A stretch of DNA of 64,000 nt from an uncultured Clostridia bacterium (GCA_947631245.1 CANRKP010000001.1:44028-108027), one strand, 5' to 3'; positions 5,549 through 50,907 are shown, counted from the stretch's first letter. Notes: generated by a model from the letters alone, not told the origin. A program made the numbers and translations.

Positions 5549-6937
5549 TTATGTCTTTTCCGCCGCCGCGTCAGTCTCCGACCTTTTTAGCTGCCTGTAA
5601 TACGGCAAAAACACGATGAGAGATACTGCGAGCGCCGCCGCGTCCGCAAGAGGTATCGCCCACACGATGCCGTATATGCCGAACAGGCGCTCAAACAAAA
5701 GCATGAGAGGGATATCCACTATCCCCTTTCGCAGAAACGAAAGGATGAGCGGCTGCACGCGCTTCCCCGTCGCCTGAAATATCGTGATTATCATAAATCC
5801 GGGCGCCGTCGTGATGCACGTCAGCGCGATTATACGCAAAAAGTTCGTGCCGTATTCCACCGTTTTCTCCGACTTTATGAACAGCCTTGCCATAGGCGCG
5901 GCACACGTCAGGAGCCACACGGCCCCCGCAACGGCAACACAGAAGCACATCGTCATCGTCGTTTTTATCGCCTTGTTCATTCTCTTCCTGTTGCCGGACG
6001 TGAAATTGTACCCTATGAGCGGCAGCGAGCCCTGCGTCATGCCCTGCGCTATCGCGAACGCGAGCATATCTATCTTCTTCGCGATCCCGATGCCCGCCGT
6101 CGCCTCGTCCGAATACGAGCCTATGAGGTGGTTCAGCATCATGTTGGAAATTGACGCGAGCGACGAGGAAGCAAAGCTCGGCAGCCCGACGGTCAGCACC
6201 TCAAACGGTATCCTGTCGCCCGTCGTATACGCGCGCGGGTCGAGCGTTGCCGACATGCGCCCGCGGTGCGAGAATATGAAAAATGCGAAGAACACCGCGG
6301 TCGCAAGGTTTGAAAGCATCGTCGCTATCGCGGCACCGGCGACCCCCATGCCGAGCCCGAAAATGAATATTGGGTCGAGTATCATGTTAAGTATGCCGCC
6401 CGCGGCGACGCCGACGCTCGCGACCGAGGAATACCCCTCGGCGCGTATCATATGCGCGAGCGTGTTGTTCATTACCGTCGGCAGCGCGCCGACCGTTATC
6501 GTCCAAAAGACATACTCCTTCGCAAATCCGAACGACTCCTTCGTCGTCGCGCCGAGCACCGGCAGCATAACGGAGCGGAGCGCGCCTATGACGACGCCGT
6601 AGAGCACGGCGGCGACCGCCGCAGTCCAGATGCAGAAGGCGGATGCGCGGCGCGCGCGTTCGCGGTCGCCGTCGCCCAGCGAGCGCGAGATGAGGCTCGC
6701 GCCGCCTATGCCGAACAAGTTCGCTATTGCGTTGAAGAAAATAAACAGCGGCATCGCCACCTGCACGGCGGCGACCTCGGCGGGGTCGCCGAGCTGACCT
6801 ATAAAATATGTGTCCGCCATATTGTATATGACGGTTATGACCTGACCTATAACGGTCGGCAATGCGAGCGCAATCACCGCCCTGCCGACGGGCACAGTCT
6901 CGAAAAGCTCGCTTTTTTCCGTTTTCACTCTGTCCAC
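5549..6937 (-). CDS. MATE family efflux transporter
   Basis: About 12 hydrophobic helices and a typical MATE N-terminus (LALPTVIGQVITVIYNMADTYFIGQLGDP). The ORF runs to 7030, but the basic N-terminal extension looks non-native. GTG codons at 6937 and 6928 are candidate starts, so the start is uncertain. Confidence 0.82.
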   Translation of the reverse strand: MDRVKTEKSELFETVPVGRAVIALALPTVIGQVITVIYNMADTYFIGQLGDPAEVAAVQVAMPLFIFFNAIANLFGIGGASLISRSLGDGDRERARRASAFCIWTAAVAAVLYGVVIGALRSVMLPVLGATTKESFGFAKEYVFWTITVGALPTVMNNTLAHMIRAEGYSSVASVGVAAGGILNMILDPIFIFGLGMGVAGAAIATMLSNLATAVFFAFFIFSHRGRMSATLDPRAYTTGDRIPFEVLTVGLPSFASSSLASISNMMLNHLIGSYSDEATAGIGIAKKIDMLAFAIAQGMTQGSLPLIGYNFTSGNRKRMNKAIKTTMTMCFCVAVAGAVWLLTCAAPMARLFIKSEKTVEYGTNFLRIIALTCITTAPGFMIITIFQATGKRVQPLILSFLRKGIVDIPLMLLFERLFGIYGIVWAIPLADAAALAVSLIVFLPYYRQLKRSETDAAAEKT

Positions 6938-7083
6938 ATCCAACAAAAAATTTCGGGCAAGCGGAGCACCGCACGCCCGAAATATTATTATACACCGTTT
7001 TTCACGCCGTGTCAAATCACCGCGCCGCAACGCCTCTCACAGGAGCTACGCGAGAGATCACGCCGCAAAGCAAAAACCCATAT

Positions 7084-7683
7084 TCACAGAAGTTCCGCCA
7101 GCTTCTCCACCGCGTCCCCGCCGCAGAGCAGCGCCCCGTGCTCGTAGAGATACGCCTCCGTTCCGCGCGGACAGCGCTCGCCTCCGTATTCTCCGCACAC
7201 GATGTCGAGCCTCTTTCCGGCGTCATATGTAAGCAGATAATATCCTCCGCCCCGCCCTGCGTATGCCGACGTCTCGCCGCAGCAGCATCCCGGCGACCGC
7301 AAAAGCCTTCCGCAGACGGCGAGCAGCGCTCCGAAGTCGGGAAAAGCGTATGCCGTCGGCGTCGGCGTCTGTCTTCGCGGCGGCGCCGGTGTTTTGACCT
7401 GTGCTGATGTCATCTGTCTCGGCATTTTTTCCCCTTCACCTCCGGTCGTGTTGTCTGTGAGCGTCACGAACAGCTCGCAGCCGCCCGCCGCGGACTCGTA
7501 TATCTGCACGAACAGCCTGCCCGAGTCAGGGTCGAAGCCGCAGGCGTCGCGCAGAAGCGAGCGCAGCCGCCTTTTTCCGTCGGCAGTCTCGATATCTACC
7601 GGCACGGCGAGATCGTAAGCGAAAAGGTCCTCCCTTGTGCACGTTATCTTCACCTTTTTCCCGCTTATCCGTATCGTCTCCAT
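7084..7683 (-). CDS. MecA-like adaptor protein (short clostridial type)
   Basis: METIRISGKKVKITCTREDLFAYDL... at the N-terminus and ...AYLYEHGALLCGGDAVEKLAELL at the C-terminus resemble the MecA N- and C-terminal patterns. The start was moved to the internal ATG at 7683, because the upstream extension looks spurious. Confidence 0.55.
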   Translation of the reverse strand: METIRISGKKVKITCTREDLFAYDLAVPVDIETADGKRRLRSLLRDACGFDPDSGRLFVQIYESAAGGCELFVTLTDNTTGGEGEKMPRQMTSAQVKTPAPPRRQTPTPTAYAFPDFGALLAVCGRLLRSPGCCCGETSAYAGRGGGYYLLTYDAGKRLDIVCGEYGGERCPRGTEAYLYEHGALLCGGDAVEKLAELL

Positions 7684-7854
7684 CGGTACCCCTCCGCGCT
7701 CTTTACAGCTACTATATATTATAGTCGCATTCCCGCCCAAACGGTACTCAAAATTTGCACCAATCGGGGAAAAATAATGCATCGGCGCCGCAAAAAAGAG
7801 AGTATCAGCCCGCCGGAGCTGAAATTGGCAGAGGGAGACGGGCGGGGGTGACTT

Positions 7855-7891
7855 TGTGATAAAAAGAAGATGCCGCTTTCGCGGCGTCTTC
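7855..7891 (-). terminator. terminator of the envelope operon (after DxHW gene)
   Basis: An 11-bp stem (7866-7876 and 7881-7891) is followed by a T-run on the minus strand (TTCTTTTTATC). Confidence 0.8.
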
Positions 7892-8013
7892 CTTCCTCCC
7901 CCCGCGCCCCCATCTTCAAAAACTTTTATGACTTGATTTTTGGGTCGGTTTATGGAAGAAGAGGGGGTGGAAAATCAGGTTTTTTCGGTTGTGATTATAC
8001 TTTGATACGGATT

Positions 8014-9441
8014 TTATTCTCCCATTATTTCGGGCGGCGTGACGGCGCCGGAGATGTAGTATTTCCCGTTGCTTTCGATGAGGACGCGGACGCCCTCCGC
8101 TTTGTCCCAAAGCTCCGTGTCAAGATATGCCGAGAAACCGTTGTCTCCGGGAGCGTCCGCGCCGAGCAGCTCTTCCTCGAATATCGGGAACGCCTCGTAT
8201 GCGTATGTTCCGTCCGCCGTATCGACGAGCAGGTACGCCCTGTAGCCGACGTCGAGATATTTTTCGTCCACAGTGCCGTAGACGTGCGCCATTCCTCCGC
8301 GCTTTTCGTATCCGAACGCGGCGTCTCCGTCCCCCATTGCCGATGCGTCGGCGGAGGCCTCCGCCTCGGGCGCCCTCATTATCGGCGCGCGGCGCGCAAG
8401 ATTTATGAGATTGCGCTCCACTATCTCAAGGACGCACACGTCATATCCGCCGCCCTCGAGCTTCTCTATCGGGAACGGGTACGCGCGCGAGAACTCCGCC
8501 TCTGCAAAGCTGCCGGCGAAGAACTCCTGCATCGTGTTGCAGAACGAGTCTCGGAACATCAAAAGCTTTCCGTGTCCCGAGCCGTTTTTCATTGTCAGGC
8601 TTAGCGCCTCGACGTTTTTCTCATGCGATGTGATGCGGTAGCCGAAATCGTATTCGGGATAATACTGCACGTCGGGCTCGGCGGCGTTTGAATACACCAT
8701 CTTCGCAAGATCGCCGGGCCAGTCGGCGCGCGCCTCAAACGTCATCCCCTCATAGCTTTTATGCTCGAAACCGACGGCGTCCATTATCGTTCTGTAGCCG
8801 AGGAGCGCGCCCCTGTAGTCCCAGTGGCTGTCGAGCCTTTGGTAGAGCACCTCGTCCTCAGCCTTAAGCGCGCCGAGAACGTCCGCCGCCGTCACTCCGT
8901 ACCGCGAGACCGCGTCCGCGACGAGCTCATAATTTCCCTTGCCAGAGAGCGGAATATAATTGTAAGGCATATTTTCCGTGTAGACAGTGTTCTTGTTCGG
9001 CACGACGGCAACGGCGAAAAGCGTGCCGTTTTCTTTCGCGTACTGCTCCATCATCAACAGCGTCCTGCCGATGTTTGAGGCGTTTCTTTCCGTGATCGTC
9101 GCGGTGTTGAGATAGTCCGCCGCGGTCTCCGCGTAGAACAGCCAGCCGCCGCGCCCGAGTATCACGTCGTCCTCGGACGAGCTGCCGAACAGCTTCGAGC
9201 GCAGAGCGCCGTTCGCCTCGACGAGAAGCCCACGCATCCCTATGTGCTCGGAAATATATGTGTCGAGCTGCTGCGTGAAATCCGCGTTGAAGCCGCCGTT
9301 CTCATTAAAAAAGGACGGAAATTCGGAGAGCTCGCGGTTTTCGGTATTTTCCCCGTCTTCAGGAAGCAGAAACATCAGCGCCGCCGGAAGTAGGAGCATC
9401 AGTATGAATATTATAAGGTAGACGACCGTGATCTTTTTCAC
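8014..9441 (-). CDS. DHHW/AlgJ-AlgX-like SGNH-type O-acyltransferase partner, N-terminal membrane anchor
   Basis: Single N-terminal TM segment (VVYLIIFILMLLLPAALMFLL) and a DxHW motif (RLDSHWDYRGALLGY). It sits immediately downstream of an MBOAT gene. Confidence 0.78.
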   Translation of the reverse strand: MKKITVVYLIIFILMLLLPAALMFLLPEDGENTENRELSEFPSFFNENGGFNADFTQQLDTYISEHIGMRGLLVEANGALRSKLFGSSSEDDVILGRGGWLFYAETAADYLNTATITERNASNIGRTLLMMEQYAKENGTLFAVAVVPNKNTVYTENMPYNYIPLSGKGNYELVADAVSRYGVTAADVLGALKAEDEVLYQRLDSHWDYRGALLGYRTIMDAVGFEHKSYEGMTFEARADWPGDLAKMVYSNAAEPDVQYYPEYDFGYRITSHEKNVEALSLTMKNGSGHGKLLMFRDSFCNTMQEFFAGSFAEAEFSRAYPFPIEKLEGGGYDVCVLEIVERNLINLARRAPIMRAPEAEASADASAMGDGDAAFGYEKRGGMAHVYGTVDEKYLDVGYRAYLLVDTADGTYAYEAFPIFEEELLGADAPGDNGFSAYLDTELWDKAEGVRVLIESNGKYYISGAVTPPEIMGE

Positions 9442-40777: not shown

Positions 40778-41227
40778 ATGAACACACCCGATAAGGAGAT
40801 GTACTGCGAGGTCTACCGCAGCTCAAAGATGGGCACGGAGTCGATCATGGCGCTTCTGCCAAAGGTCGAAAACGAACAGCTCAGAGCCGATATGGTCACT
40901 CAGATGAACGGCTACGGCAGCTTCGCCGAGCGCGCCAAAAACGGACTTTCCGAGGCGCACATCGAGGCGCAGGAGGAGAAAAAGTCCAAGGTTTTCGCCG
41001 CGAAGTCCGGCATCGCCGCAGAGACGCTCTTTGACTCGTCGGCATCCCATATTGCGGAGCTGATGATAAGAGGAAGCGGCGCGGACATCGTTTCGATAAC
41101 GCGTTCGCAGAACGAGGCGACGCACGGTCAGGTCCGTATATCGGAGGCGACTCCGGCATTCAGGCTCTGCTCGGAACTCGTCGATTTCGAAAATCAGAAC
41201 ATCGAGCGCATGAAAAAGTATCTGTAA
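40778..41227 (+). CDS. hypothetical protein (likely all-helical)
   Basis: ORF of 149 aa followed by a G/C hairpin terminator. No motif recognised. Confidence 0.5.
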   Translation: MNTPDKEMYCEVYRSSKMGTESIMALLPKVENEQLRADMVTQMNGYGSFAERAKNGLSEAHIEAQEEKKSKVFAAKSGIAAETLFDSSASHIAELMIRGSGADIVSITRSQNEATHGQVRISEATPAFRLCSELVDFENQNIERMKKYL

Positions 41228-41251
41228 ACGATATGGATACAAGGAAAAAGC

Positions 41252-41283
41252 GGGGGGAATGCTTTCCCCCCGTTATTCCTTTC
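41252..41283 (+). terminator. terminator after the 149-aa ORF
   Basis: A GGGGGGAA / TTCCCCCC stem with a 4-nt loop is followed by GTTATTCCTTTC. Confidence 0.65.
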
Positions 41284-43153
41284 AGCGTCTGCCGCCGGGA
41301 CCTCCGAAGCCGCCGGGCCTTCCGCCGCCGCCTCCGGGTCCTCCGCCGCCGAAGCCGCCTCCCTCTCCGTATATGAGAGAGGTCATTTTTATTTCATACG
41401 AGTTTCCGCCGACCAAAAGCGTGTATTCTCCGCCCTCTTTTATCCCGGGCGCGCTTATTACGACGGAATTATACGACTTTGCTGGCTGAAACTCTGCGAG
41501 CACATCTCCGTTTTCGTCCGTGAGCGTAACTTTGCCGCCATCGCTGCTGCCGACGTTATACATAATGGCTCCCTGCGTAGAGGATGAGCCGAAATTTTCC
41601 GCCATTCCGGAGGCTCCGACCGCAACGACGACGCCGCCCGTGATCTTCCCCTCCGTCGCGTAGTCGAGCGCGCCGTTGCCGCTGTTCGTCGGACCGTCGA
41701 CGTAAGTCTCGCCGCCCTCGACGAAAAGCGCGCCGTTTGAGTCGAGCCCGTCGCCGGACGCGTTTACATATACTCTTCCTCCCGAAATGAGCAGGTATAC
41801 TTCCGTCCCGCTCTCCGTCTCAGACGGGGCTCCGGGACGTCCTCCGCCGAACATTCCGCCGGTATCTCCCGTTCCATCGGAGGCGTTGAAGCCGTCGTCG
41901 TCGGAAACTATGCTCACCTCACCGTCCGAGACGGTTATTGTTTTACCTTCTATGCCCTCGTAGCTCTTCTTTATGTCAACGCTGCCGCCCGAGATGACAA
42001 TGCTGCCGTCCGCGTGTATCCCGTCGTCGCCGGAGGAAATAGAGATCTCCCCTCCCGAGACATTCACGTTTCCGTCGCTGTGCACCGCGTCGTCAGCCGT
42101 GTCGACCGTTATGACGCCGCCCGAAACGGCAACGGCGGCGCTGCCCTTTATCCCCTTTTGGCTGACGGTATCGTCCGACGTGTCGGCGGAGCCTCCGAAG
42201 CCGCTGAAACCGCCCCACATGCCGCCCGTGTGCTGCTCGCCGTTTTTGCTGCCGCCGCCCGCGGTCACTTTTATCTCCCCGCCGGAGACATTCACTTCTC
42301 TTCCGGCGTATATCCCGTCTCCGTCGGCGGTTATGTCAAATCTGCCGCCCGTTATGACAACGTTCCCGCGCTCCGCGTCGTCGTCGTTTTCGGAACGTAT
42401 GCCGTCCTTGCCCGAGACGAGCGTCAGCGTGCCGCCCGCGACGGCGGCGCAGTCCTTGCCGGAGAGCGCGTGCCCCTCGGGCGCGCTGACGGAGAATTCA
42501 CCGCCCGTTATTTTAAGGTCGTCCTTTGAGACTATCCCGTCGCCCTTCTCGGAGCTGACCGTCAGCTTCCCCTCGCCGTTGAAGGTTATATCCTCGCGGG
42601 AGAAAATGGCGCCGTCGACGTTTACGGTATCTCCCGTTTCGGCGTCGGTATCCGGCGAAAACTCACCTTTCGACGAAAGGAAATTCTCGCTCCCGCGGGC
42701 GAGCGTGACGAAGACCTTGTCTGCGCTTTTCACATACAGCGCCGCCGAGCCTTCGTTCGTTATGTCGACGCCGTCGAGCACAAGCTGTATCTTGTCGCTC
42801 TTATCCGCCTCAATTTTGACGGAGCCGTTTTTCACATTCCCGGAGAGAACGTAGACGCCCGCCTCCGTTATCAGATTTTCGCCTTCCGACAGCGTCAGCC
42901 TGACCGCGCCGTCCTCGTCGTAATCGGTTTCGAGGTCGCGGGCGGAGAACACGTCGTCGGGGTCGATACTCGTAACGATGTCATTATTTCCCGCCGTATC
43001 CGACGGCGCTTTTATATCGTTATTTTCTCCCGTCACGCCGCCGGTCTCATCGCCCTTGTTTTCAGAAACCGCGGGGCTGCATCCGCACAAAAGAAGGCAA
43101 ATGACCAAGGCTGCCGGCACAAATTTATATCTTTTCATGAGCGCACGCTCCAA
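41282..43153 (-). CDS. Cthe_2159-like carbohydrate-binding beta-helix lipoprotein with Gly/Pro-rich C-terminal tail
   Basis: The lipobox is LLLCGCS. Recurrent repeats of the type V.V.GG.i.I....DGI.s.G.v.isGG suggest a parallel beta-helix. The tail reads GEGGGFGGGGPGGGGGRPGGFGGPGGRR. Confidence 0.72.
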   Translation of the reverse strand: MERALMKRYKFVPAALVICLLLCGCSPAVSENKGDETGGVTGENNDIKAPSDTAGNNDIVTSIDPDDVFSARDLETDYDEDGAVRLTLSEGENLITEAGVYVLSGNVKNGSVKIEADKSDKIQLVLDGVDITNEGSAALYVKSADKVFVTLARGSENFLSSKGEFSPDTDAETGDTVNVDGAIFSREDITFNGEGKLTVSSEKGDGIVSKDDLKITGGEFSVSAPEGHALSGKDCAAVAGGTLTLVSGKDGIRSENDDDAERGNVVITGGRFDITADGDGIYAGREVNVSGGEIKVTAGGGSKNGEQHTGGMWGGFSGFGGSADTSDDTVSQKGIKGSAAVAVSGGVITVDTADDAVHSDGNVNVSGGEISISSGDDGIHADGSIVISGGSVDIKKSYEGIEGKTITVSDGEVSIVSDDDGFNASDGTGDTGGMFGGGRPGAPSETESGTEVYLLISGGRVYVNASGDGLDSNGALFVEGGETYVDGPTNSGNGALDYATEGKITGGVVVAVGASGMAENFGSSSTQGAIMYNVGSSDGGKVTLTDENGDVLAEFQPAKSYNSVVISAPGIKEGGEYTLLVGGNSYEIKMTSLIYGEGGGFGGGGPGGGGGRPGGFGGPGGRR

Positions 43154-43271
43154 AAAATTTTTTATGATGTGATTTTACCCAAATAACGTAAAGATATAAT
43201 GTTCGTCATGTGAAATAAAGGTGACGGGGAGCGGAAAATTTATCAACCCTGCGCCGTAAGCATGCACATGC

Positions 43272-43333
43272 GAAAAAAATCGGGGGGGAAAGGCTTTCAT
43301 TGCCGCCGCAGACGCGCCGGAAAGCCCTTCCCC
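43272..43333 (-). terminator. terminator of trxB
   Basis: A ~14-bp stem with one mismatch (43285-43298 and 43320-43333) is followed on the minus strand by GATTTTTTTCG. Confidence 0.7.
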
Positions 43334-43358
43334 TGTGTATTTGTTATATTTTATCCTC

Positions 43359-44279
43359 TCACCCGAGATATCTGCACGCGGCGACTGCGGCGGCGGCGCC
43401 GTCTGCGGTCGCCGTCGTTATCTGGCGCACGGTCTTCGTGCGGCAGTCTCCGGCGACGAAAACGCCAGGCGTCTCCGTGACGCACGTCTCGTCAGACATG
43501 ATATATCCTGCCTCGTCAAGGCTCGTCATCGCCTCGAACGGCTGATTCTTCGGCTCAAGTCCTACGGCGACGAACGCGCCGTCGCAGACGATATCCTCCA
43601 TCCTCCCGTCCGCCGTGTGCTTCACGGTGACGCCGCCGAAGCTGCCGTCGTCACGCTTTATGAACTTATCGACAGTGACGCCGCATATGACGTTTACGTT
43701 TTCGCGGGCAAGGAGCGAGTTCTGAAGCGTCTTCTCCCCCGTCAGAAAATCGAGGTTCTGAAGCACCGTGACGCTTTTGCAGCCGTCGGCGAGCATCAGC
43801 GCCTCGCCGAGCGCGGAGTTTCCCCCGCCGACAACGGCGACGTCTCGCCCGCGGTAGAACGCGCCGTCGCACACGGCGCAGAACGACACGCCCTCTCCTA
43901 TAAGGTCCGCCTCTCCCGGAACGCCGAGCCGCCTGTGCTCAGCACCCGCCGCGATTATTACTGCGCGCGCCTCATACTCGGCGCCGCTCTCGCAGCGCAC
44001 GGTCTTGACATAGTCGGGCGCGCCGCCCTCCGTGATGCCAGTGACTTCCTCAAGCTCCGTTTCGGCTCCGAGTTCGAGCACCTGCGTCACCATCGCGTCC
44101 GCGATCTCGTTGCCGGACGCGGACTGAAGACCGGGATAATTCTCTATCTTCGGGGAATACGTCATCTGCCCGCCGAACGCCGCCTTCTCAAGCAGAAGCA
44201 CGCTCTTTTCCGAGCGCCGCGCGTATATCGCCGCCGTGAGTCCGGCGGGACCCGCGCCTATTATAATAATATCGTACAT
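43359..44279 (-). CDS. trxB: thioredoxin-disulfide reductase
   Basis: The FAD site is IIIGAGPAGLTAA, the redox-active motif is CAVCDG and the NADPH site is VVGGGNSALGEA. Confidence 0.92.
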   Translation of the reverse strand: MYDIIIIGAGPAGLTAAIYARRSEKSVLLLEKAAFGGQMTYSPKIENYPGLQSASGNEIADAMVTQVLELGAETELEEVTGITEGGAPDYVKTVRCESGAEYEARAVIIAAGAEHRRLGVPGEADLIGEGVSFCAVCDGAFYRGRDVAVVGGGNSALGEALMLADGCKSVTVLQNLDFLTGEKTLQNSLLARENVNVICGVTVDKFIKRDDGSFGGVTVKHTADGRMEDIVCDGAFVAVGLEPKNQPFEAMTSLDEAGYIMSDETCVTETPGVFVAGDCRTKTVRQITTATADGAAAAVAACRYLG

Positions 44280-44289
44280 ATACCTTCCT

Positions 44290-44355
44290 CCATAATAAAA
44301 AGGCTCTGGGGAGCCTTAAAACCGGCGACGGGGGAGGGAGTTTTCCCCCTCCCCC
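44290..44355 (-). terminator. two tandem hairpins between the nrdD stop and the trxB RBS (partial terminator/attenuator?)
   Basis: Hairpin B is GGGGGAGGG / CCCTCCCCC (44330-44355). Hairpin A is AAGGCTC / GAGCCTT (44300-44317). Hairpin A is followed on the minus strand by TTTTTATTATGG, which runs directly into the GGAGG RBS of trxB. Confidence 0.55.
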
Positions 44356-44365
44356 GAAGCTTTTC

Positions 44366-46756
44366 TTATGCCTTCGCGGGTTCTCCGGCTATATAGCGCT
44401 TGATGTTTGCGACGCCTGCGTATTTCTCCGTGTCGTCTCCTCTGACGACGACGAGCGTCGGCGCCTGGCGTATGCCGAACTCCTTTGTGAGCTCGCGGTC
44501 TTCCTCCGCCAAGAGCTTATCGTAGCCGATTCCGGCGCGGTCGAGCAGAGACACCGCTATCTTGCAGTTCGGGCAGGTCGCCGTCGTGAAGAGGTAGAGG
44601 TTCTCCCCGCCGGACGCCACCAGCTGCTCGGCGGGCTCATTTTCCACCGATGCGGACGTGTTTTCGGGCACCTCGTTCTGTATGAACGCGCCGACGTCGT
44701 ATTCGAGCCTGTCGCGGAACTCCTGCGCCTTGCCCGCGTTCCAGTTGCGGACCGGGCGGTAGTAGCCGGTTATACGGCTGTATACCTCGGTCTCCTCGCC
44801 GCACTCGGGGCACTCGAAGTGCTCGCCCGAGATGTAGCCGTGCTCTGGGCAGATAGAGTACGTCGGCGACATCGTGTAGTACGGGAGCTTGTAGTTCTCC
44901 GCTATCTTGCGGACGAGCGCCGCCGTCGAGCGCCAGTCGGGAAGTCTCTCGCCGAGGAACGCGTGGAAAACGGTGCCGGACGTGTAGAGCGTCTGAAGCT
45001 CGTCCTGTATGTCGAGCGCGGAGAATACGTCGTCGGTAAATCCGACGGGCAGATGCGAGCTGTTCGTGTAATACGGCGTCCCGCAGCGCTCGTTTGCCGT
45101 GATGATGTCCGGGTACTGTTCCTTGTCGTGCTTAGCGAGGCGGTACGACGTCGATTCAGCCGGGGTCGCCTCGAGATTGAAGAGGTCGCCGTACTTCTCC
45201 TGATAGTCGGAGAGGCGCTCTCTCATGTGGTTGAGCACATCCTTCGTGAACTGCTGCGCCTTCGGGTCGGTGAGGTCGCAGCGGAGCCACCTTGCGTTGA
45301 GGCACGCCTCGTTCATGCCGACAAGCCCTATCGTCGAGAAATGGTTTGCGAACGTGCCGAGGTAGCGCTTCGTGTACGGGTAGAGACCCGCGTCGAGCAG
45401 CTTTGTTATGACCGTGCGCTTCGTGTCGAGCGAGCGCGCCGCAATGTCCATCATGTGGTCGAGGCGGGAGTAGAACTCCTCCTCGGTCTTTGACAGATAC
45501 GCGATGCGGGGCATGTTTATCGTAACGACGCCTATCGAGCCCGTCGATTCGCCCGAGCCGAAGAAGCCTCCCGACTTCTTGCGGAGCTCGCGCAGGTCAA
45601 GTCTCAGGCGGCAGCACATCGAGCGCACGTCCGACGGCTCCATGTCGCTGTTGATATAGTTGGAGAAATAAGGCGTGCCGTACTTCGCCGTCATCTCGAA
45701 GAGCATCTTATTGTTCTCGGTCTCCGACCAGTCGAAGTCCCTTGTTATCGAGTACGTCGGGATCGGGTACTGGAAGCCGCGGCCGTTCGCGTCGCCCTCT
45801 ATCATTATCTCTATGAACGCCTTGTTGATGACGTCCATCTCCGCCTTGCAGTCGCCGTAGGTGAAGTCCATGTCCTTTCCGCCTACGATAGCGGGGAGGT
45901 TTTCAAGGTCTGCGGGGACTGTCCAGTCGAGCGTGATGTTGGAGAACGGAGCCTGCGTGCCCCAGCGGGACGGCGTGTTCACGCCGAAGATGAAGCTCTG
46001 TATGCACTGCTTGACCTCTTTGTATGTGAGGTTGTCCACTTTTACGAAAGGCGCCAAATATGTGTCGAACGAGGAGAACGCCTGCGCGCCCGCCCACTCG
46101 TTCTGCATAATGCCGAGGAAGTTCACCATCTGGTTGCAGAGGGTGGAGAGATGACTTGCCGGAGCTGACGTAATGCGCCCCGTGACGCCGCCGAGGCCCT
46201 CGCGTATAAGCTGCTTGAGCGACCAGCCCGCGCAGTATCCCGTCAGCATCGAAAGGTCGTGCAGATGGATGTCCGCGTTCCTGTGCGCGTCCGCGACCTC
46301 GCGGTCGTATATTTCCGACAGCCAGTAATTCGCCGTTATCGCGCCCGAGTTCGAGAGGATGAGACCGCCGACGGAATATGTGACCGTACTGTTCTCCTTG
46401 ACGCGCCAGTCGTCAGCGTTGACGTATTTGTCGACGAGCTCCTTGTAGTCGAGGATCGTGGAGCTCATGTTGCGTATCTTCTCGCGCTGGCGGCGGTAGA
46501 GGATGTAGGCCTTCGCGACGTCCGCATATCCCGCCTCGGAGAGCACCTTCTCGACGCTGTCCTGTATGTCCTCGACAGATATCCTGTCGTCCTTTATTTT
46601 GGAGGAAAAGTCAGCCGTGACCTTCAGAGAGAGAAGATCTATGACCGAGGGATGATAGTTCGTATGCTCGGCGTCAAACGCCTTTTCTATCGCCCTGCTT
46701 ATCTTGGAAATATCGAATTCCGCTATCTGTCCGTCACGTTTTATTACCTGATACAT
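44366..46756 (-). CDS. nrdD: anaerobic ribonucleoside-triphosphate reductase (class III) with C-terminal thioredoxin/glutaredoxin-like fusion
   Basis: The N-terminal ATP-cone reads VIKRDGQIAEFDISKI and the finger-loop Cys segment is RSMCCRLRLD. The Zn ribbon is CPEHG...CPECG and the glycyl radical motif is RITGYYRPV. An extra ~100 aa tail carries CPNC (LYLFTTATCPNCKIAV...APTLVVV). The start is the ATG at 46756 with GGAGG 5 nt upstream; the track's TTG at 46768 lies inside that RBS. Confidence 0.95.
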   Translation of the reverse strand: MYQVIKRDGQIAEFDISKISRAIEKAFDAEHTNYHPSVIDLLSLKVTADFSSKIKDDRISVEDIQDSVEKVLSEAGYADVAKAYILYRRQREKIRNMSSTILDYKELVDKYVNADDWRVKENSTVTYSVGGLILSNSGAITANYWLSEIYDREVADAHRNADIHLHDLSMLTGYCAGWSLKQLIREGLGGVTGRITSAPASHLSTLCNQMVNFLGIMQNEWAGAQAFSSFDTYLAPFVKVDNLTYKEVKQCIQSFIFGVNTPSRWGTQAPFSNITLDWTVPADLENLPAIVGGKDMDFTYGDCKAEMDVINKAFIEIMIEGDANGRGFQYPIPTYSITRDFDWSETENNKMLFEMTAKYGTPYFSNYINSDMEPSDVRSMCCRLRLDLRELRKKSGGFFGSGESTGSIGVVTINMPRIAYLSKTEEEFYSRLDHMMDIAARSLDTKRTVITKLLDAGLYPYTKRYLGTFANHFSTIGLVGMNEACLNARWLRCDLTDPKAQQFTKDVLNHMRERLSDYQEKYGDLFNLEATPAESTSYRLAKHDKEQYPDIITANERCGTPYYTNSSHLPVGFTDDVFSALDIQDELQTLYTSGTVFHAFLGERLPDWRSTAALVRKIAENYKLPYYTMSPTYSICPEHGYISGEHFECPECGEETEVYSRITGYYRPVRNWNAGKAQEFRDRLEYDVGAFIQNEVPENTSASVENEPAEQLVASGGENLYLFTTATCPNCKIAVSLLDRAGIGYDKLLAEEDRELTKEFGIRQAPTLVVVRGDDTEKYAGVANIKRYIAGEPAKA

Positions 46757-46812
46757 ATCTTCCTCCAACGTCCCTATGCAATTTATTTTGTATGACTACT
46801 TGTGCTGACATA

Positions 46813-46825
46813 CTACATTTTGTAG
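46813..46825. promoter_or_regulatory. imperfect palindrome CTACATTTTGTAG just downstream of the nrdD -10 (weak NrdR-box-like site)
   Basis: CTACA/TGTAG arms. The 16-mer on the minus strand, CTACAAAATGTAGTAT, matches about 11/16 consensus positions by eye. Confidence 0.35.
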
Positions 46826-46835
46826 CACGAGAGAA

Positions 46836-46865
46836 ATTATATCACAACCTGATGCACGGTGTCAA
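46836..46865 (-). promoter_or_regulatory. promoter of nrdD
   Basis: Minus strand TTGACA (46865-46860), 18 nt, TATAAT (46841-46836). It lies ~80 nt upstream of the ATG at 46756. Confidence 0.6.
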
Positions 46866-46908
46866 GACGGTTATAACATTTTGTCTGTGACAAAAACGGC
46901 GCTTTGTT

Positions 46909-46927
46909 TTTGTATATTATATACAAA
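46909..46927. promoter_or_regulatory. AT-rich palindrome TTGTATATTATATACAA upstream of the nrdD -35
   Basis: Perfect 8+1+8 palindrome. The arm polarity (G..C outside) differs from NrdR boxes, so it may bind another factor. Confidence 0.3.
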
Positions 46928-47046
46928 GCTCACTAATATCCGTTTTTGCTCGCCGTGTTCCCGAAAATGCCGTCGCGCACCTTTCGCTTTTTCATTATTC
47001 ATTTTCTCCGTCATCCGCCCGGCCATACATACAAAATATTGGGGCG

Positions 47047-47100
47047 CGAAAAAACGGGGGAGAGCTTCGCCGCCGCATATGCGCCGAAAAGCGCCTCCCC
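47047..47100 (-). terminator. terminator downstream of nrdG
   Basis: A GGGGAG...CTCCCC outer stem has GC-rich internal pairing and is followed on the minus strand by CGTTTTTTCGCG. Confidence 0.7.
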
Positions 47101-47121
47101 GTATCCGTGATTTGAATTTTT

Positions 47122-47139
47122 GACACAATATATTGTGTC
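47122..47139. promoter_or_regulatory. perfect 18-bp palindrome GACACAATATATTGTGTC matching the NrdR-box consensus
   Basis: Its central 16 bp, ACACAATATATTGTGT, fit the published NrdR box pattern acaCwAtATaTwGtgt at every position. It lies 8 nt after the nrdG stop and upstream of the nrdG terminator. Confidence 0.55.
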
Positions 47140-47147
47140 TTTAGAAC

Positions 47148-47840
47148 TCAGACGCCCCGCAGCGCCACCGTCTTAACGAACGGACGCGCGGCGTCCGCCA
47201 TTTTCTCCATCTCCTCCTTCGTCGGTGAGGTAAAGCCGCCGACGAGCAGCTCTCCCGAGTCGCGGAACTGCTGAAGATAATACCTCTCGGCGCCCGAGAT
47301 CCATTTTGCCGCGTCCGCAATGTCGTCCGGCGTATGCAGTTCTCTCGTCACCGTCGTGCGGAACTCGTACTCGATGCCGCAGGACAGAAGTATCTCAATC
47401 GAGTCCGAGACGCGCGAAATGAGCGCGTCTCCCGAGATCCCCGCGGTCTCTTTGTACTTTTCGCGCGAGTTTTTGATGTCCATCGCGACGTAATCGAGCA
47501 GACCCTCATCTATCATGGCGCGCAGCTTTTCCGGCTGCGTCCCGTTAGTATCGAGCTTCACCGCGAACCCGAGCTCCTTCACCCTTTTGGCAAAGTCCCC
47601 GATCCCGGGCTGTATCAGCGGCTCGCCGCCCGTTATCGCAACGCCCTCGAGGATGCCCGTGCGCTTTTTCAGAAACGCGTAAAACTCCTCCGTCTCCATG
47701 ACGGGCGGCGCCTCGCCCCTGACCAAAGACGCATTGTGGCAGAACGGGCAGCGCATATTGCAGCCCGCCGTGAAAACCGTGCAGGCGACCTTTCCCGGGA
47801 AATCGAGAAGCGTCAGTTTTTGTAATCCGTTTATCGTCAT
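47148..47840 (-). CDS. nrdG: anaerobic ribonucleoside-triphosphate reductase activating protein (radical SAM)
   Basis: LLDFPGKVACTVFTAGCNMRCPFCHN (CxxxCxxC) and GVAITGGEPL. About 230 aa, next to nrdD. Confidence 0.9.
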   Translation of the reverse strand: MTINGLQKLTLLDFPGKVACTVFTAGCNMRCPFCHNASLVRGEAPPVMETEEFYAFLKKRTGILEGVAITGGEPLIQPGIGDFAKRVKELGFAVKLDTNGTQPEKLRAMIDEGLLDYVAMDIKNSREKYKETAGISGDALISRVSDSIEILLSCGIEYEFRTTVTRELHTPDDIADAAKWISGAERYYLQQFRDSGELLVGGFTSPTKEEMEKMADAARPFVKTVALRGV

Positions 47841-47916
47841 TTTGCGGCTCCTGTCCTTTTTGAAGAGCCCGCCGGCAAAGTTTTGCCGGCGGACCGTTTT
47901 TTCTTTTACCGCGCCG

Positions 47917-49395
47917 TTATTTTTTGTCGGTCGCGTTTATCTCGATGCCCTTCATCGCCTTGTCGGCGTCGCTTATTACCTTCTCGGCGTCGTCCGCGAG
48001 CACATAGAAGCTCGAGCTTCCGTTGACGGTCAGAAGACAGCGGCGCGTGCTGTAACGGTAGAAGCCGTACTCCGTCGTCTTGCCTCCGTTCGTCGTCACT
48101 GAAAACTTCAGCATACATTTGTCCTCGTCCGCCGTGACGCCCTCGGGCGCCTCGCCCTCTATGCTGACGAGCAGCAGCGTCTTATAAAATTCGCGGAAAT
48201 TGCGTACGTTCGCTATCTGTCCGCAAACGTCGCCTATCACGATAAGATTGGGGTCGTCGTTCGGATGATGAGTGAGGCGGAACGTCTCGTCAACATCGCC
48301 GCCGTGCACCGATATCTCCTTAACGGACGTGATGCCGCGCGAGAACACCGACGACTCGACCCAGCGCAGAAGCCCCCATGAAAGGAAGTCAAAATCCGCC
48401 TCCGGCACCTTTATTATGTCCTCAAACGCCGACGTCGAAACGTAATAGTATCCGTCGACGGGCTCGCTTGCGACAAGGCGGAACTTATACCCCTCGTATT
48501 CGTAGGAGATGACATAGGGCTCGTCTTTCAGCCCGTATTTTTCAAGGTTTTCCGGGGTCAGGTCTATCGCCACAACTTCCTCTCCCTCGTATGCCGCGAG
48601 GGTCTGTATGGTCTTGTCGTAATAAGTCGAGAGCTGATACTCGCCCGGAAAAACGGAAACTGCGTCCGCGACCGCTGATGTTTCAAGCTCTGCAAGCTCC
48701 GCCGCCGTGAGGTTTCGGCAGGTGAGGAAATCTTCGCCGTAATGCTTTATCGAGAAATTGTCTATCTTGTAGTATTCCTTGGCGCTGACGCCGGCAGTCA
48801 GCATCGGCGACAGGAGGGCTTCGACGGGCGCGAGCACAGTCTCCTCGAACGAGGCGGAAAGGACGTATATCGCGTCCCTGCCCTCGTACATCGCGTAATA
48901 TCCGCCGCCCGAGATGATGCGTTCGCCTATCTTTACCGTGTGTACTGTCCCGCTGTTCGTCGTTATTTTATAGTACGCGGGGTCTGCGGCGTCCGAGAGT
49001 CCAAAGTCCTCGAGTTCCTCTGCCGTCGCGTGGTCGGAGAGCTTTTCGAGCGCGTATGTCGTGCCCGTGTTGACAACGAGCGCAGATATCTTTTCCGCGT
49101 CTCTCGCGAGCCTCTCGTGACCCTCGAGAATAAAGTCCTTCGCGTCCTTGTCGTAAACGAACTTATACGTCCCGTAGTCGTTGTGCACCTCGATCGAAGC
49201 CATATCCTCGCGCCGCACCTGCGGGAACATCAGAAGCACGCTGTACGCCTCTCCCTCTCCCGCGTCGGTGACGAGCGTCTCCGGCTGCGTCTCCTCGGGC
49301 GCCGTCATCGGACGGACGACGATAAAGTACGCCGCGGTCAGCACCGCGAAAACCGCGATGAGCACCGCTATCATTATCCTCTGTGTTTTGAGCAT
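47917..49395 (-). CDS. DUF4340-like protein with N-terminal TM anchor
   Basis: Single N-terminal TM segment (IMIAVLIAVFAVLTAAYFIVV). It sits directly after the GldG-like gene (TAAATG junction), the usual position of DUF4340 proteins. Confidence 0.68.
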   Translation of the reverse strand: MLKTQRIMIAVLIAVFAVLTAAYFIVVRPMTAPEETQPETLVTDAGEGEAYSVLLMFPQVRREDMASIEVHNDYGTYKFVYDKDAKDFILEGHERLARDAEKISALVVNTGTTYALEKLSDHATAEELEDFGLSDAADPAYYKITTNSGTVHTVKIGERIISGGGYYAMYEGRDAIYVLSASFEETVLAPVEALLSPMLTAGVSAKEYYKIDNFSIKHYGEDFLTCRNLTAAELAELETSAVADAVSVFPGEYQLSTYYDKTIQTLAAYEGEEVVAIDLTPENLEKYGLKDEPYVISYEYEGYKFRLVASEPVDGYYYVSTSAFEDIIKVPEADFDFLSWGLLRWVESSVFSRGITSVKEISVHGGDVDETFRLTHHPNDDPNLIVIGDVCGQIANVRNFREFYKTLLLVSIEGEAPEGVTADEDKCMLKFSVTTNGGKTTEYGFYRYSTRRCLLTVNGSSSFYVLADDAEKVISDADKAMKGIEINATDKK

Positions 49396-50907
49396 TTATT
49401 TGTACCTTCTTCTGACCGTGACGACGATGCAGGCGACGGCTATGCATATCGGCATTACGAGCACCAAGGTATATGTCCATGTGTTCGCCTGAGCCGTCGT
49501 TATGTCAAGGTCATAGTCCGCGAACACCTTGAACTCTATGCCGGCGGGGACGTTTTCCTTTCCGAGCGATATCAGAAGCGAGTGAATGACGTCGCGGTTC
49601 GAATGGACGTTGCTGTTCAGGTACTGCGGCGACACGAACTCGGGGCTGCCGCATGCGACGACATAGCTCGTGTAGTCCTCGTTGTCCACTATCTTGTATT
49701 CCTGCGATATCGTCATGAGACCGTAAACGCCGTCGGCGTCGCGCGTCTCCCCGTTCTCCGTCAGCTTCGCCGTGGAGCTCGTCATAAAGACGTCGGAAAT
49801 GACGCGGGAGCTTAGGTCGGACATATTTTTATTCTCCTCGACCCACGCGTGCTTTATAGGCGTGGCGGAGCGGAAGATCGCCTTAGGCTGGCTCGAAAGC
49901 TCCGTCAGCCTGCTGTATACGGCGGACGCAAGCTCGCTCTCCTCGGTGTTGTACTGACCGACGACGGAGAACCCGTCGACGGATACCGCGTTGTCGGGGT
50001 CGGAAACGGTGACGCCGGGCATAAAGACGACGCCCCATTCCTCAAGAAATTCCGAGAGATTTTTGAGATTTCCGACTCTCTCGGGCGAGACGAACGTCAT
50101 GACAGAGCCGAAGCCGTCGAGAAAATCGTCTATCTTCTCTATCTCCGACTTGCCGGTGTGCTCCTCGTAGATGCCGCCGAAATCGTACTGCGGGTCGTTG
50201 ATTATGAGAAGGCGCGCGTCCTCGGACATATCCTGCGTCGAAAGATCTATCGGTTCTACCTTGTAACCCGCGTCCTCTATAAGTGAGATGAACGTCGTCG
50301 CGTCTCCCGTCAGCGCCTCGCCGTGCCCCATCGTGAAGTACGCGATCGGCGTCTCCGACGCCGTCACCTGAAGTATCGCGGACGCGAACCTGTTCTCTCC
50401 GTCATAAGCCCAAATGTAGGTCGGATCCTCGGTGTCCTTGATGAAAAATCTCTCCGAGTCGTACTTGCGGTACTCGGTGCCCGACGAGATTATGACGGAC
50501 GTAGTCTTGACAAAGTCGGTCGCCACCGTGCGGAAGCGCTCGAGATATTTCTTGTCGCGCATGACGTCGCGGTATTCTATCTTTATATTATGGAACTTGT
50601 CGGCGAGGTTCTGCGCCGTATTGTGTATCATGAACAGCGCCGCGTCCGCGTCGACCTCGTCTTTGTCCTGACAGAACGTTATGAGGACGTCGCTGTCAAC
50701 ATTTTTGAGCACGTCGACCGTCGAGTCGTCGAGCGAGTAGAGAGACGTGGACGTCATATCTATATACCATCTGTACTTCGTCGCAAACGCGGAGAAAATG
50801 ACGTTCACTATTATCACGAGCGCGACGAAGGCGACCGTGAGAGCGGCGGACGTTCCGCCGTAGCGGAGCTTCTTGCTTTTTGCCATGCTGTTTATATTGT
50901 TCTTCAT
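49396..50907 (-). CDS. GldG-family ABC transporter auxiliary protein
   Basis: N- and C-terminal TM anchors flank a large extracytoplasmic domain, and the gene follows an ABC-2 permease. The start is set at the ATG at 50907 (GGGGGTG RBS) rather than the TTG at 50922. Confidence 0.78.
   Translation of the reverse strand: MKNNINSMAKSKKLRYGGTSAALTVAFVALVIIVNVIFSAFATKYRWYIDMTSTSLYSLDDSTVDVLKNVDSDVLITFCQDKDEVDADAALFMIHNTAQNLADKFHNIKIEYRDVMRDKKYLERFRTVATDFVKTTSVIISSGTEYRKYDSERFFIKDTEDPTYIWAYDGENRFASAILQVTASETPIAYFTMGHGEALTGDATTFISLIEDAGYKVEPIDLSTQDMSEDARLLIINDPQYDFGGIYEEHTGKSEIEKIDDFLDGFGSVMTFVSPERVGNLKNLSEFLEEWGVVFMPGVTVSDPDNAVSVDGFSVVGQYNTEESELASAVYSRLTELSSQPKAIFRSATPIKHAWVEENKNMSDLSSRVISDVFMTSSTAKLTENGETRDADGVYGLMTISQEYKIVDNEDYTSYVVACGSPEFVSPQYLNSNVHSNRDVIHSLLISLGKENVPAGIEFKVFADYDLDITTAQANTWTYTLVLVMPICIAVACIVVTVRRRYK

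Follow-up and report, generated by a model that had tools for sequence, protein, structure and literature searches.

A class III ribonucleotide reductase of gut Clostridia with a tethered thioredoxin-fold domain and a neighbouring reductase gene that lacks the NADPH motif

Class III ribonucleotide reductases (RNRs) are the sole route to deoxynucleoside triphosphates (dNTPs) in many strict anaerobes, and their reductant has been settled for few of them: formate in Escherichia coli, T4 and Lactococcus lactis, and thioredoxin in Neisseria bacilliformis. The NrdD2 enzymes of N. bacilliformis and Thermotoga maritima are reportedly reduced by thioredoxin, thioredoxin reductase (TrxR) and NADPH (the PNAS study of Wei et al. 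from 2014), and the NrdD3 enzyme of Methanosarcina barkeri is said to work with an NrdH-like redoxin and a ferredoxin:disulfide reductase, the latter an Fe-S enzyme and not a flavoprotein, with all parts being separate proteins (the Biochemistry study of Wei et al. from 2015). Here we describe a locus in a 64,000-nucleotide stretch of DNA from an uncultured Clostridia bacterium (GCA_947631245.1 CANRKP010000001.1:44028-108027; hereafter the window), in which nrdG, nrdD and trxB are three collinear open reading frames (ORFs) on the minus strand, NrdD ends in a thioredoxin-fold domain on a variable linker, and the TrxR-like product of trxB has lost the motif that marks NADPH-dependent enzymes. 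Our favoured reading, which we hold to be probable though well short of certain, is that this is a thiol-type (NrdD2-like) class III RNR with its own electron carrier and the genome's only RNR, in which the tail would re-reduce the active site and TrxB would recycle the tail.

Several described proteins resemble single parts of this locus. NrdD2 enzymes are defined by a third Cys together with a Glu (Aurelius 2015, relaying Wei 2014), NrdD3 enzymes have a QCCR finger loop and no Glu, and those with an MCCR loop, which make up 83% of the double-Cys class III enzymes, may use either reductant (Burnim 2022). The class I fusion Grx::ATP-cone::NrdB of Facklamia ignava has a glutaredoxin (Grx) domain that was shown experimentally to be the enzyme's own reductant, and NrdH is reduced by TrxR and encoded beside its RNR (Rozman Grinberg 2018, PMC6187632). 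Atypical low-molecular-mass (low-Mr) TrxRs include the NADH-preferring DvTR3 and T. maritima TR, the NAD(P)H-independent DvTRi and the clostridial FFTR (Valette 2017, PMC5627308; Anjou 2024, PMC10880999). A full-text literature search turned up neither an account of an NrdD that has a redoxin fused to its C-terminus and a linked TrxB nor an assay of any fused-NrdD member. Burnim 2022, on RNR extensions, gives class III C-termini as the glycyl-radical domain only, with 'thioredoxin-like' and 'redoxin' occurring zero times, and a 2026 glycyl radical enzyme review names only 'formate or thioredoxin/thioredoxin reductase'. A preliminary description of the window, made from the sequence alone, had known of no characterised enzyme of this architecture; we found no study of one either, but a Grx:NrdD fusion has been listed before, as one uncharacterised 'Glutaredoxin:NrdD' from Lachnospiraceae bacterium TWA4 (subclass NrdDd) in Table S1 of Rozman Grinberg 2018. 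The fused NrdD is a new variant of thiol-dependent class III RNR.

ORF calling in the window recovered the same three ORFs, in the same minus-strand order and at the same positions, as the preliminary description. The genes and their protein features are:

47148-47840, minus strand: nrdG, an ORF of 230 amino acids (aa) encoding the radical-SAM activase of class III RNR (TIGR02495, PF04055, PF13353)
44366-46756, minus strand: nrdD, 796 aa plus stop, class III RNR with a C-terminal redoxin domain
46481-46750, minus strand: ATP-cone, NrdD residues 3-92 (PF03477, 82.4 bits)
46223-46243, minus strand: TGYCAGW with the beta-A cysteine C175, aligned with Tyr124-Cys125 of T. maritima NrdD, invariant in 47/47 sequences
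45605-45622, minus strand: finger loop S-M380-C381-C382-R383-L, of the double-Cys MCCR type, aligned with SCCR of T. maritima, invariant in 47/47
45155-45181, minus strand: FNLEATPAE with E529, the putative active-site base, aligned to T. maritima NrdD, invariant in 47/47
44750-44851, minus strand: Zn ribbon (residues 636-653) and glycyl-radical motif RITGYYRPV (661-669, with G664), located in the NrdD translation
44606-44698, minus strand: linker, residues 687-717, differing between relatives in both length and sequence, disordered by prediction (alignment; AlphaFold2 (AF2) predicted local distance difference test (pLDDT) 47-49)
44387-44605, minus strand: thioredoxin-fold domain, residues 718-790, with CPNC and a cis-Pro-type P766 (Pfam, AF2, Foldseek)
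44564-44575, minus strand: C728-P-N-C731 redox motif, residues 728-731, located in the NrdD translation
43359-44279, minus strand: trxB, 306 aa, low-Mr TrxR-like flavoprotein
within trxB, minus strand: motifs GEG (residues 128-130), CAVC (134-137), GGGNSALGE (151-159) and QNLDFLTG (174-181), read in the translation and by alignment to solved TrxRs

NrdD lies above the curated cut-offs of PF13597 (640 bits against 26.2), NF006126 (1150 against 548) and TIGR02487 (522 against 326), and it has the marks of a class III RNR in its glycyl-radical motif, Zn ribbon, finger-loop Cys and adjacent NrdG activase; in the profile search the latter scored 222.9 bits as NrdG2 (TIGR02495, cut-off 131.15). The core domain PF13597 covers residues 121-686, and 110 further residues therefore follow it, in keeping with the extension past the Zn ribbon and glycyl-radical motif that had first been noticed. 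The full-length AF2 model of NrdD was poor (mean pLDDT 61) and was used solely to note that the tail folds as a separate unit; in it residues 688-716 have pLDDT below 50.

The tail has a thioredoxin fold around its CPNC motif, as had been proposed. It matches PF00462 (Glutaredoxin) over residues 722-770 with 24.8 bits, against a gathering score of 22.9. We aligned it with the tails of 64 related loci (non-redundant at <90% identity, out of 70 extracted); C-P-x-C and the cis-Pro-type Pro (QAPTL) are invariant in all 65, and among 73 tails CPNC occurs in 69, the others having CPKC (2), CANC (1) or no such motif (1). AF2 run on the 65-tail alignment gave pLDDT of about 95 for tail residues 33-105 (NrdD 718-790) and a beta-alpha-beta-alpha-beta-beta-alpha topology. 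With this model Foldseek returned at least 253 solved chains at E <= 0.001, the top matches including thioredoxins, glutaredoxins, protein disulfide isomerase a-domains and KaiB, and an independent structure aligner gave a tie at Z 9.7-10.2 among the dithiol glutaredoxin 7c10, Bacillus cereus BC3987 (3zij) and E. coli NrdH (1h75; Z 9.7, root-mean-square deviation 1.7 Å over 68 residues), with glutathione S-transferase N-terminal domains and thioredoxins also within the tie. The likeness to NrdH is one of fold and not of membership, the NrdH-redoxin profile TIGR02194 giving 19.1 bits against a cut-off of 85.75; the glutaredoxin equivalogs TIGR02181, NF007923 and TIGR02196 (YruB) gave 18.6-22.5 bits, below cut-offs of 88-129, and the tail likewise stayed below the Grx3 and MJ0307 equivalog cut-offs. 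In ESM-Atlas the closest clusters consist of Bacillota proteins of 79-102 aa called 'glutaredoxin family' (score 0.97). On its predicted structure, the tail is a minimal Grx/NrdH-type thioredoxin fold.

We also sought free-standing ancestors of the tail and obtained 701 matches at E <= 0.001 among 1.84 billion representatives, most of them 75-170 aa long. Ten small matches were looked up, and as most lay on contigs under 10 kb, clustered with full-length NrdD or were named RNR, the small matches are largely fragments. One 90-aa tail-like protein on a 102-kb contig may be a genuine free-standing form.

The active site was compared across 47 fused NrdDs, the protein of the window being aligned with 46 out of 120 listed tail-search matches. 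C636, H639, C649, C652 and G664 are invariant in this alignment, as is C728-P-N-C731-K of the tail. E529 aligns with the Glu in FNIEQVPAE of T. maritima NrdD, and the formate-type P. copri (MGCR) NrdD has Leu there (by alignment only). The alignment thus gives the enzyme both NrdD2 features, a third active-site Cys (in the double-Cys finger loop) and an active-site Glu; however, the absence of a finger-loop Met, by which Burnim 2022 recognises enzymes that use solely thioredoxin, does not apply, as M380 is present and invariant. The active site reads as the thiol-dependent NrdD2 pattern with the Met of formate chemistry kept, so the thioredoxin-type site implied by the preliminary description is borne out by the extra Cys and the Glu and departed from at M380. 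MCCR was read in 80 of 81 rows. In the exception, L066, the extraction fell on a second, MGCR-type NrdD just downstream: this metagenome-assembled locus (L066:~6400-9309) holds a fused MCCR nrdD followed by a single-Cys MGCR NrdD and a short NrdG-like ORF, so that both RNR types adjoin.

TrxB is a low-Mr TrxR-like protein that scores 308.7 bits on TIGR01292, under the cut-off of 343.45. It has the FAD motif GxGxxG (GAGPAG), the second-domain CxxC (CAVC) and the GGGxxAxE pyrophosphate motif (GGGNSALGE), the Glu of which is one position off in the window, relatives reading GGGNSALQE. The 2'-phosphate motif VxxxHRRDx[F/L]R, a criterion for NADPH-type TrxRs (Valette 2017, PMC5627308; Anjou 2024, PMC10880999), is replaced by VTVLQNLDFLTG, with all three Arg gone; in the alignment to solved NADPH-type TrxRs, 'vtivHRRDtLRA' stands opposite 'vtvlQNLDfLTG'. 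The thioredoxin-contact motif G[R/K]G of low-Mr TrxRs (Valette 2017, PMC5627308) is also altered, to GEG in the window and to E, N, D or A at its middle position in 34 of 38 linked copies whose 2'-phosphate motif begins with Gln (Q-type). As the HRRxxxR motif is lost, NADPH is an unlikely donor, and the NADPH-fed TrxB of the preliminary description is not of the NADPH type by these published criteria. The pyrophosphate motif is intact and the 2'-phosphate arginines are gone, which makes NADH the simplest guess; on these motifs NADH is most likely the donor, and a protein such as ferredoxin or flavodoxin is less likely. The literature searched held no motif rule that separates NADH-type from donor-protein-type TrxRs.

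We considered whether the linked TrxB is an FFTR and rejected this. It matches the NADPH-type 7aaw at E 3.4e-73, against weak matches of E 1e-26 to 1e-27 to the FFTR structures 6gna, 6gnc and 6gnd, which are confined to residues 2-169 (6gna, E 1.8e-27, in the N-terminal half); FFTRs are recognised by clustering together and by the loss of both NAD(P)H motifs (Anjou 2024, PMC10880999), and here the GGG motif is retained. Among 51 linked TrxBs, 29 read Q[NDQ]x..T[GAC][ED], 17 (Faecalibacterium included) HRR and five something else, two of the five (GDA...TLF) being without either NAD(P)H motif. GDA for GGG together with TLF for HRR marks a third class of TrxB linked to nrdD, seen in L037, L083 and L121; this combination looks NAD(P)H-independent, and the donor may therefore differ between lineages.

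Eleven genomes have two TrxBs, and in these the linked copy is of the Q-type (Q[ND]) in 9/9 fetched and the other copy of the [H/Y/N]RR-type in 11/11. A maximum-likelihood (ML) tree of 70 TrxBs, from which the motif columns had been left out, placed the 11 unlinked copies on one side of a branch (Shimodaira-Hasegawa-like approximate likelihood ratio test, SH-aLRT, 85) and gathered 37 of the 38 Q-type copies into a single derived group (41 rows, support 82) that lies among linked copies of the HRR type. This was a quick ML tree of moderate support, its rooting on the unlinked copies was assumed, and the Q-type linked copies form a distinct lineage in it with moderate support. In five genomes with a fused NrdD and no neighbouring trxB, none of 12 matches was a Q-type TrxB. 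Four TrxB homologs of one genus (g82) have an in-frame TGA, one each (G215:C11:17028-17912, G230:C31:3063-3947, G296:C8:16141-17025 and G152:C39:18217-19101), and three of the four share a contig with a fused nrdD and lie 1.4-2.8 kb downstream of it; the TGA could be a selenocysteine codon, a sign of a pseudogene or a recoding.

Docking of TrxB with the tail was rated 'weak support', with a median score of 0.59 against 0.24 for the best control, 100% contact agreement between runs and partner pLDDT of at least 84. Among solved complexes, 116 of 157 reached the mark that it passed, as did 2 of 215 mismatched pairs; at scores of 0.60 or under, only 18 of the 157 reached it, together with both passing mismatches. 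As TrxR-Trx complexes have already been solved, the pass may reflect likeness to known complexes.

The fusion is real, strongly conserved and very widespread in gut bacteria. A search with the tail alone gave 791 clusters (90% identity) at E <= 0.001 among 958 candidates, nearly all of 786-802 aa, and the named ones are called 'ribonucleoside triphosphate reductase' and come from Clostridia or from metagenome-assembled genomes of Ruminococcaceae. Among species-representative genomes at least 602 stretches encode a relative. Eighty of these loci were kept, including Faecalibacterium prausnitzii, Roseburia lenta, [Clostridium] symbiosum, Blautia, Pseudoflavonifractor and Clostridiales bacterium CCNA10, and 71 of these named loci hold the tail end. 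In 301 genomes sampled evenly from the window's order, 122 had a tail-bearing NrdD (71-100% identity) among the matches listed, that is, among the best 150 of each search. The fused form is the common NrdD in Oscillospiraceae and Lachnospiraceae, Faecalibacterium, Roseburia and Blautia among them, and its cultured carriers include these three. The tail was matched once among 50,697 phage records, in L121 (MT835493.1, 43931-51140), an UNVERIFIED 'Bacteriophage sp.' scaffold from human faeces with nrdG, fused nrdD (802 aa) and, after a 3-nt gap, a trxB whose product lacks both NAD(P)H motifs (GDANTALQY ... TLFDRF).

The adjacency of trxB is kept in relatives. Among the matches listed in the order sample, 124 tail-bearing loci had a trxB within 600 nt on the same strand in 90 cases (most gaps 7-130 nt) and at 1.1-2.8 kb in 5, with none seen in 29, at least two of which lie at contig ends. 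The 71 named loci had trxB within 600 nt in 47, at 1.0-1.6 kb in 3 and none seen in 21, with varied genes downstream in the trxB-less loci; 43 of the 71 carry an upstream nrdG on the same strand.

The genome of the window (2.08 Mb, 95.5% complete) has one NrdD, and no class I or II RNR, no pyruvate formate-lyase (PFL) or PFL-like domain (TIGR01255, PF02901) and no other Pfam-Grx match was found in it. TrxB is its only TrxR-like gene above about 37 bits, all other matches being at 37 bits or less, so there is no extra copy that would make this one 'dedicated', as the preliminary description had called it. One free WCGPC thioredoxin is encoded at G000:C5:37823-38122 (L007 1498-2073, minus strand), with no reductase gene near it, and TrxB must therefore also serve this thioredoxin; the long N-terminal extension of that ORF is probably a start-codon artefact.

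Signals around the three genes are:

47123-47138, no strand assigned: NrdR-box-like perfect palindrome ACACAATATATTGTGT, 10 nt past the nrdG stop codon
47048-47102, minus strand: terminator-like hairpin and U-tract after nrdG (minimum free energy (MFE) -40.2 kcal/mol, z -3.36)
46836-46865, minus strand: promoter-like site TTGACA-18-TATAAT with TG extension, 5' of nrdD (12/12 hexamer matches; a match to the sigma-70-type consensus only)
44300-44356, minus strand: two hairpins in the nrdD-trxB spacer (44329-44356 and 44300-44317; MFE -41 kcal/mol, z -2.43)
43272-43334, minus strand: terminator-like hairpin and T-tract after trxB, GGGGAAGGGCTTT...AAAGCCTTTCCCC then CCCGATTTTTTT, read directly from the sequence and not in the promoter/terminator scan list

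The hairpin after nrdG bears out the terminator of its own that this gene had been credited with: none of 200 shuffles folded equally well, and the stem is followed by GUUUUUU. The nrdG-nrdD spacer is 391 nt long and holds no riboswitch (Rfam, E <= 1, over 41000-50000); a match to sraA outside the locus was rejected as chance level (27 bits against a gathering score of 56). The nrdD start is an ATG behind GGAGGA, and an in-frame TTG at 46768 would give 4 aa more. Three promoter-like sites were found in 43000-48300 and none inside the 86-nt nrdD-trxB spacer, in agreement with the earlier remark that trxB has no room for a promoter of its own; the two spacer hairpins, the second followed by UUUAUUAU, had gone unmentioned, and they are possibly a partial terminator, a processing site or a stabiliser.

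The NrdR-box-like palindrome is the sole match in the window at three mismatches or fewer, with 0.13 expected, for what we take to be the NrdR consensus. Of 72 related loci, 50 have a similar site 5' of nrdD, whereas none of 72 controls does, and the genome has an NrdR gene. In the window the palindrome comes after the nrdG stop and before the hairpin that follows this gene; it is some 260 nt upstream of the promoter-like site and farther from nrdD than in most relatives (usually -90 to -200). Two AT-rich palindromes were read by eye, TGTATATAATATACA at 46906-46927 and CTACAAAATGTAG at 46811-46826, the latter immediately past the -10 element. The flanking genes are unrelated, with a Cthe_2159-type carbohydrate-binding protein on one side and DUF4340 and ABC-transporter auxiliary genes on the other; the former, encoded just downstream of the trxB terminator, is a 623-aa secreted-looking Cthe_2159-family protein (41282-43153, minus strand, 291.6 bits) whose C-terminus is rich in Gly and Pro.

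From these features we infer the following electron route. Turnover would oxidise C175 and a finger-loop Cys (C381 or C382) to a disulfide, with E529 acting as base. The CPNC domain could then swing on its flexible linker of about 30 residues and re-reduce this disulfide, either within the same subunit or in the other one of the dimer, and the flavoprotein encoded 86 nt downstream would recycle the oxidised CPNC domain. TrxB, which still has FAD, its CAVC dithiol and a dinucleotide pyrophosphate motif, would draw its electrons most likely from NADH and would also recycle the single free thioredoxin of the genome. The operon is probably transcribed from the strong promoter-like site upstream of nrdD, under NrdR control. 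The self-contained chain that the preliminary description had proposed thus survives in outline, without the 'dedicated' reductase and without NADPH as the donor.

Several observations weigh against this reading. With M380 retained, the enzyme may also use formate. MCCR is likewise found in ten NrdDs of this order that have no tail (about 50% identity), and nine of them match the xxxEATPAE regex (eight YNLEATPAE, one FNYEATPAE), so this type of active site needs no tethered domain; within 3 kb of these ten no trxB or tail-like gene was found. (The tail-less loci are ordered nrdD then nrdG in 8/10, and a split form, with a separate redoxin gene beside a tail-less NrdD, was rejected for want of any within 3 kb in the 10 loci.) A folded redoxin would have to reach a disulfide inside the barrel. 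With no second TrxR in the genome, the placement of trxB could in part be a matter of housekeeping co-regulation, and 21 of the 71 named loci, mostly of Lachnospiraceae, had no trxB in the fetched stretch, four of these having less than 1 kb downstream. Two hairpins, one of them terminator-like, separate nrdD from trxB, and one RNA run of a related strain (holding 5% of the sampled words, and possibly containing DNA as well) gave five short contigs (90-99% identity, parts of trxB and nrdD), none bridging the two genes. The NADH assignment was made by motif logic alone. Finally, PFL occurs in 57 of 122 genomes with a fused NrdD and in 85 of 179 without (47% each); the fusion therefore does not track the loss of formate production, and the idea that a lack of formate drives it was rejected.

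The alternative that survives best, which we nevertheless consider unlikely, is that the tethered domain serves activation or repair, keeping the cysteines of the Zn ribbon and the glycyl-radical domain reduced for NrdG, for instance after transient oxygen, with turnover running on formate or free thioredoxin. The tail is joined right after the Zn ribbon and the glycyl-radical motif, which are hence its nearest possible targets; Lundin 2015, in the passage that cites Padovani et al. 2001, gives thioredoxin an 'activating role' for the class III RNR of E. coli; and M380 is retained and PFL present in 57/122 fusion genomes. However, formate supply is not evident in the window's genome, which has no PFL-like gene, the invariant CC and Glu are the signature of thiol-based turnover (Aurelius 2015), and a role in repair only would not readily explain a reductase gene tightly coupled to nrdD across many families. 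A dual-mode enzyme, in which formate would be the main reductant where available, by a Met-Cys thiosulfuranyl route, and the tethered redoxin with TrxB a backup when it is scarce, strikes us as quite unlikely. The finger loop does hold a Met plus the double Cys, Burnim 2022 raises this possibility for MCCR enzymes, and PFL is found in 47% of fused-NrdD genomes and absent from the rest, the window's among them; against this reading, with no formate source found there, the thiol path would be the main one locally. That the adjacency means nothing for NrdD, trxB being a housekeeping TrxR that shares the operon and the fused domain a general redoxin acting on other targets, is very improbable: trxB is indeed the only TrxR here and the free WCGPC thioredoxin lies elsewhere with no adjoining reductase, but 11 genomes own a separate HRR-type TrxB and still have a distinct Q-type copy beside nrdD, the tail's closest relatives are overwhelmingly NrdD tails (791 NrdD-length clusters, the small matches being mostly fragments), and a covalent tether argues for a local target.

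Returning to the tethered domain as the reductant of turnover, we tentatively suggest a wider reading, to which we give somewhat less than even credence. In gut Clostridia a non-NADPH flavoprotein would pass electrons to a redoxin tethered to NrdD and on to the active-site disulfide, a relay that would make all deoxynucleotides in a large share of them; the nrdD-linked TrxB lineage would have switched its donor from NADPH to NADH or a low-potential protein; and in genomes with this TrxR alone the whole thioredoxin network would be NADPH-independent. The tail would then be the first 'external' redox-active dithiol built into a class III RNR, in the role that a C-terminal Cys pair has in classes I and II. 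Should the reductant be the tethered domain, this would explain how MCCR-type enzymes work and would tie the DNA synthesis of dominant gut commensals to a particular reductant pool. It would also offer a ready system, with cultured hosts and a covalent carrier fit for mixed-disulfide trapping, on how a dithiol gains access to the buried active site of class III enzymes. The motif-less TrxB may represent a new cofactor class of low-Mr thioredoxin reductase.

Compared with known systems, the locus shares with the NrdD2 enzymes of N. bacilliformis and T. maritima the beta-A Cys, the double-Cys finger loop, the aligned Glu and a protein dithiol as the presumed reductant. Similarity to T. maritima NrdD is low (E 1.7e-36), and those enzymes have SCCR with no Met, a free thioredoxin and NADPH, whereas the window NrdD has MCCR and a covalently fused redoxin, and its reductase, unlike theirs, is encoded next to nrdD and lacks the NADPH 2'-phosphate motif. 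In the M. barkeri NrdD3 system, too, a class III RNR reportedly receives its electrons from a small redoxin dedicated to it and a reductase that is not of the NADPH type. NrdH (E. coli, 1h75, class Ib RNR), whose signature is CVQC/WSGFRP, is similar to the tail in its minimal fold of about 75 residues, Grx-like sequence and Trx-like partner; NrdH is free-standing, whereas the tail is fused, has CPNC and scores 19.1 against 85.75 on TIGR02194. Like DvTR3, T. maritima TR, DvTRi and FFTR, TrxB has a TrxR scaffold with another sequence in place of the HRRD 2'-phosphate motif, but where DvTRi has TQ/NGK and a degenerate GGG, the window TrxB has Q[ND]L..TGE and an intact GGGNSAL, and the cited passages of Valette 2017 and Anjou 2024 report no nrdD linkage for any of the four. 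As in the F. ignava fusion, a small Grx-type domain is joined to an RNR subunit; there it sits at the N-terminus of a class I enzyme's radical-generating subunit and depends on glutathione, whereas here it sits at the C-terminus of a class III enzyme's catalytic subunit and has a TrxR-like partner.

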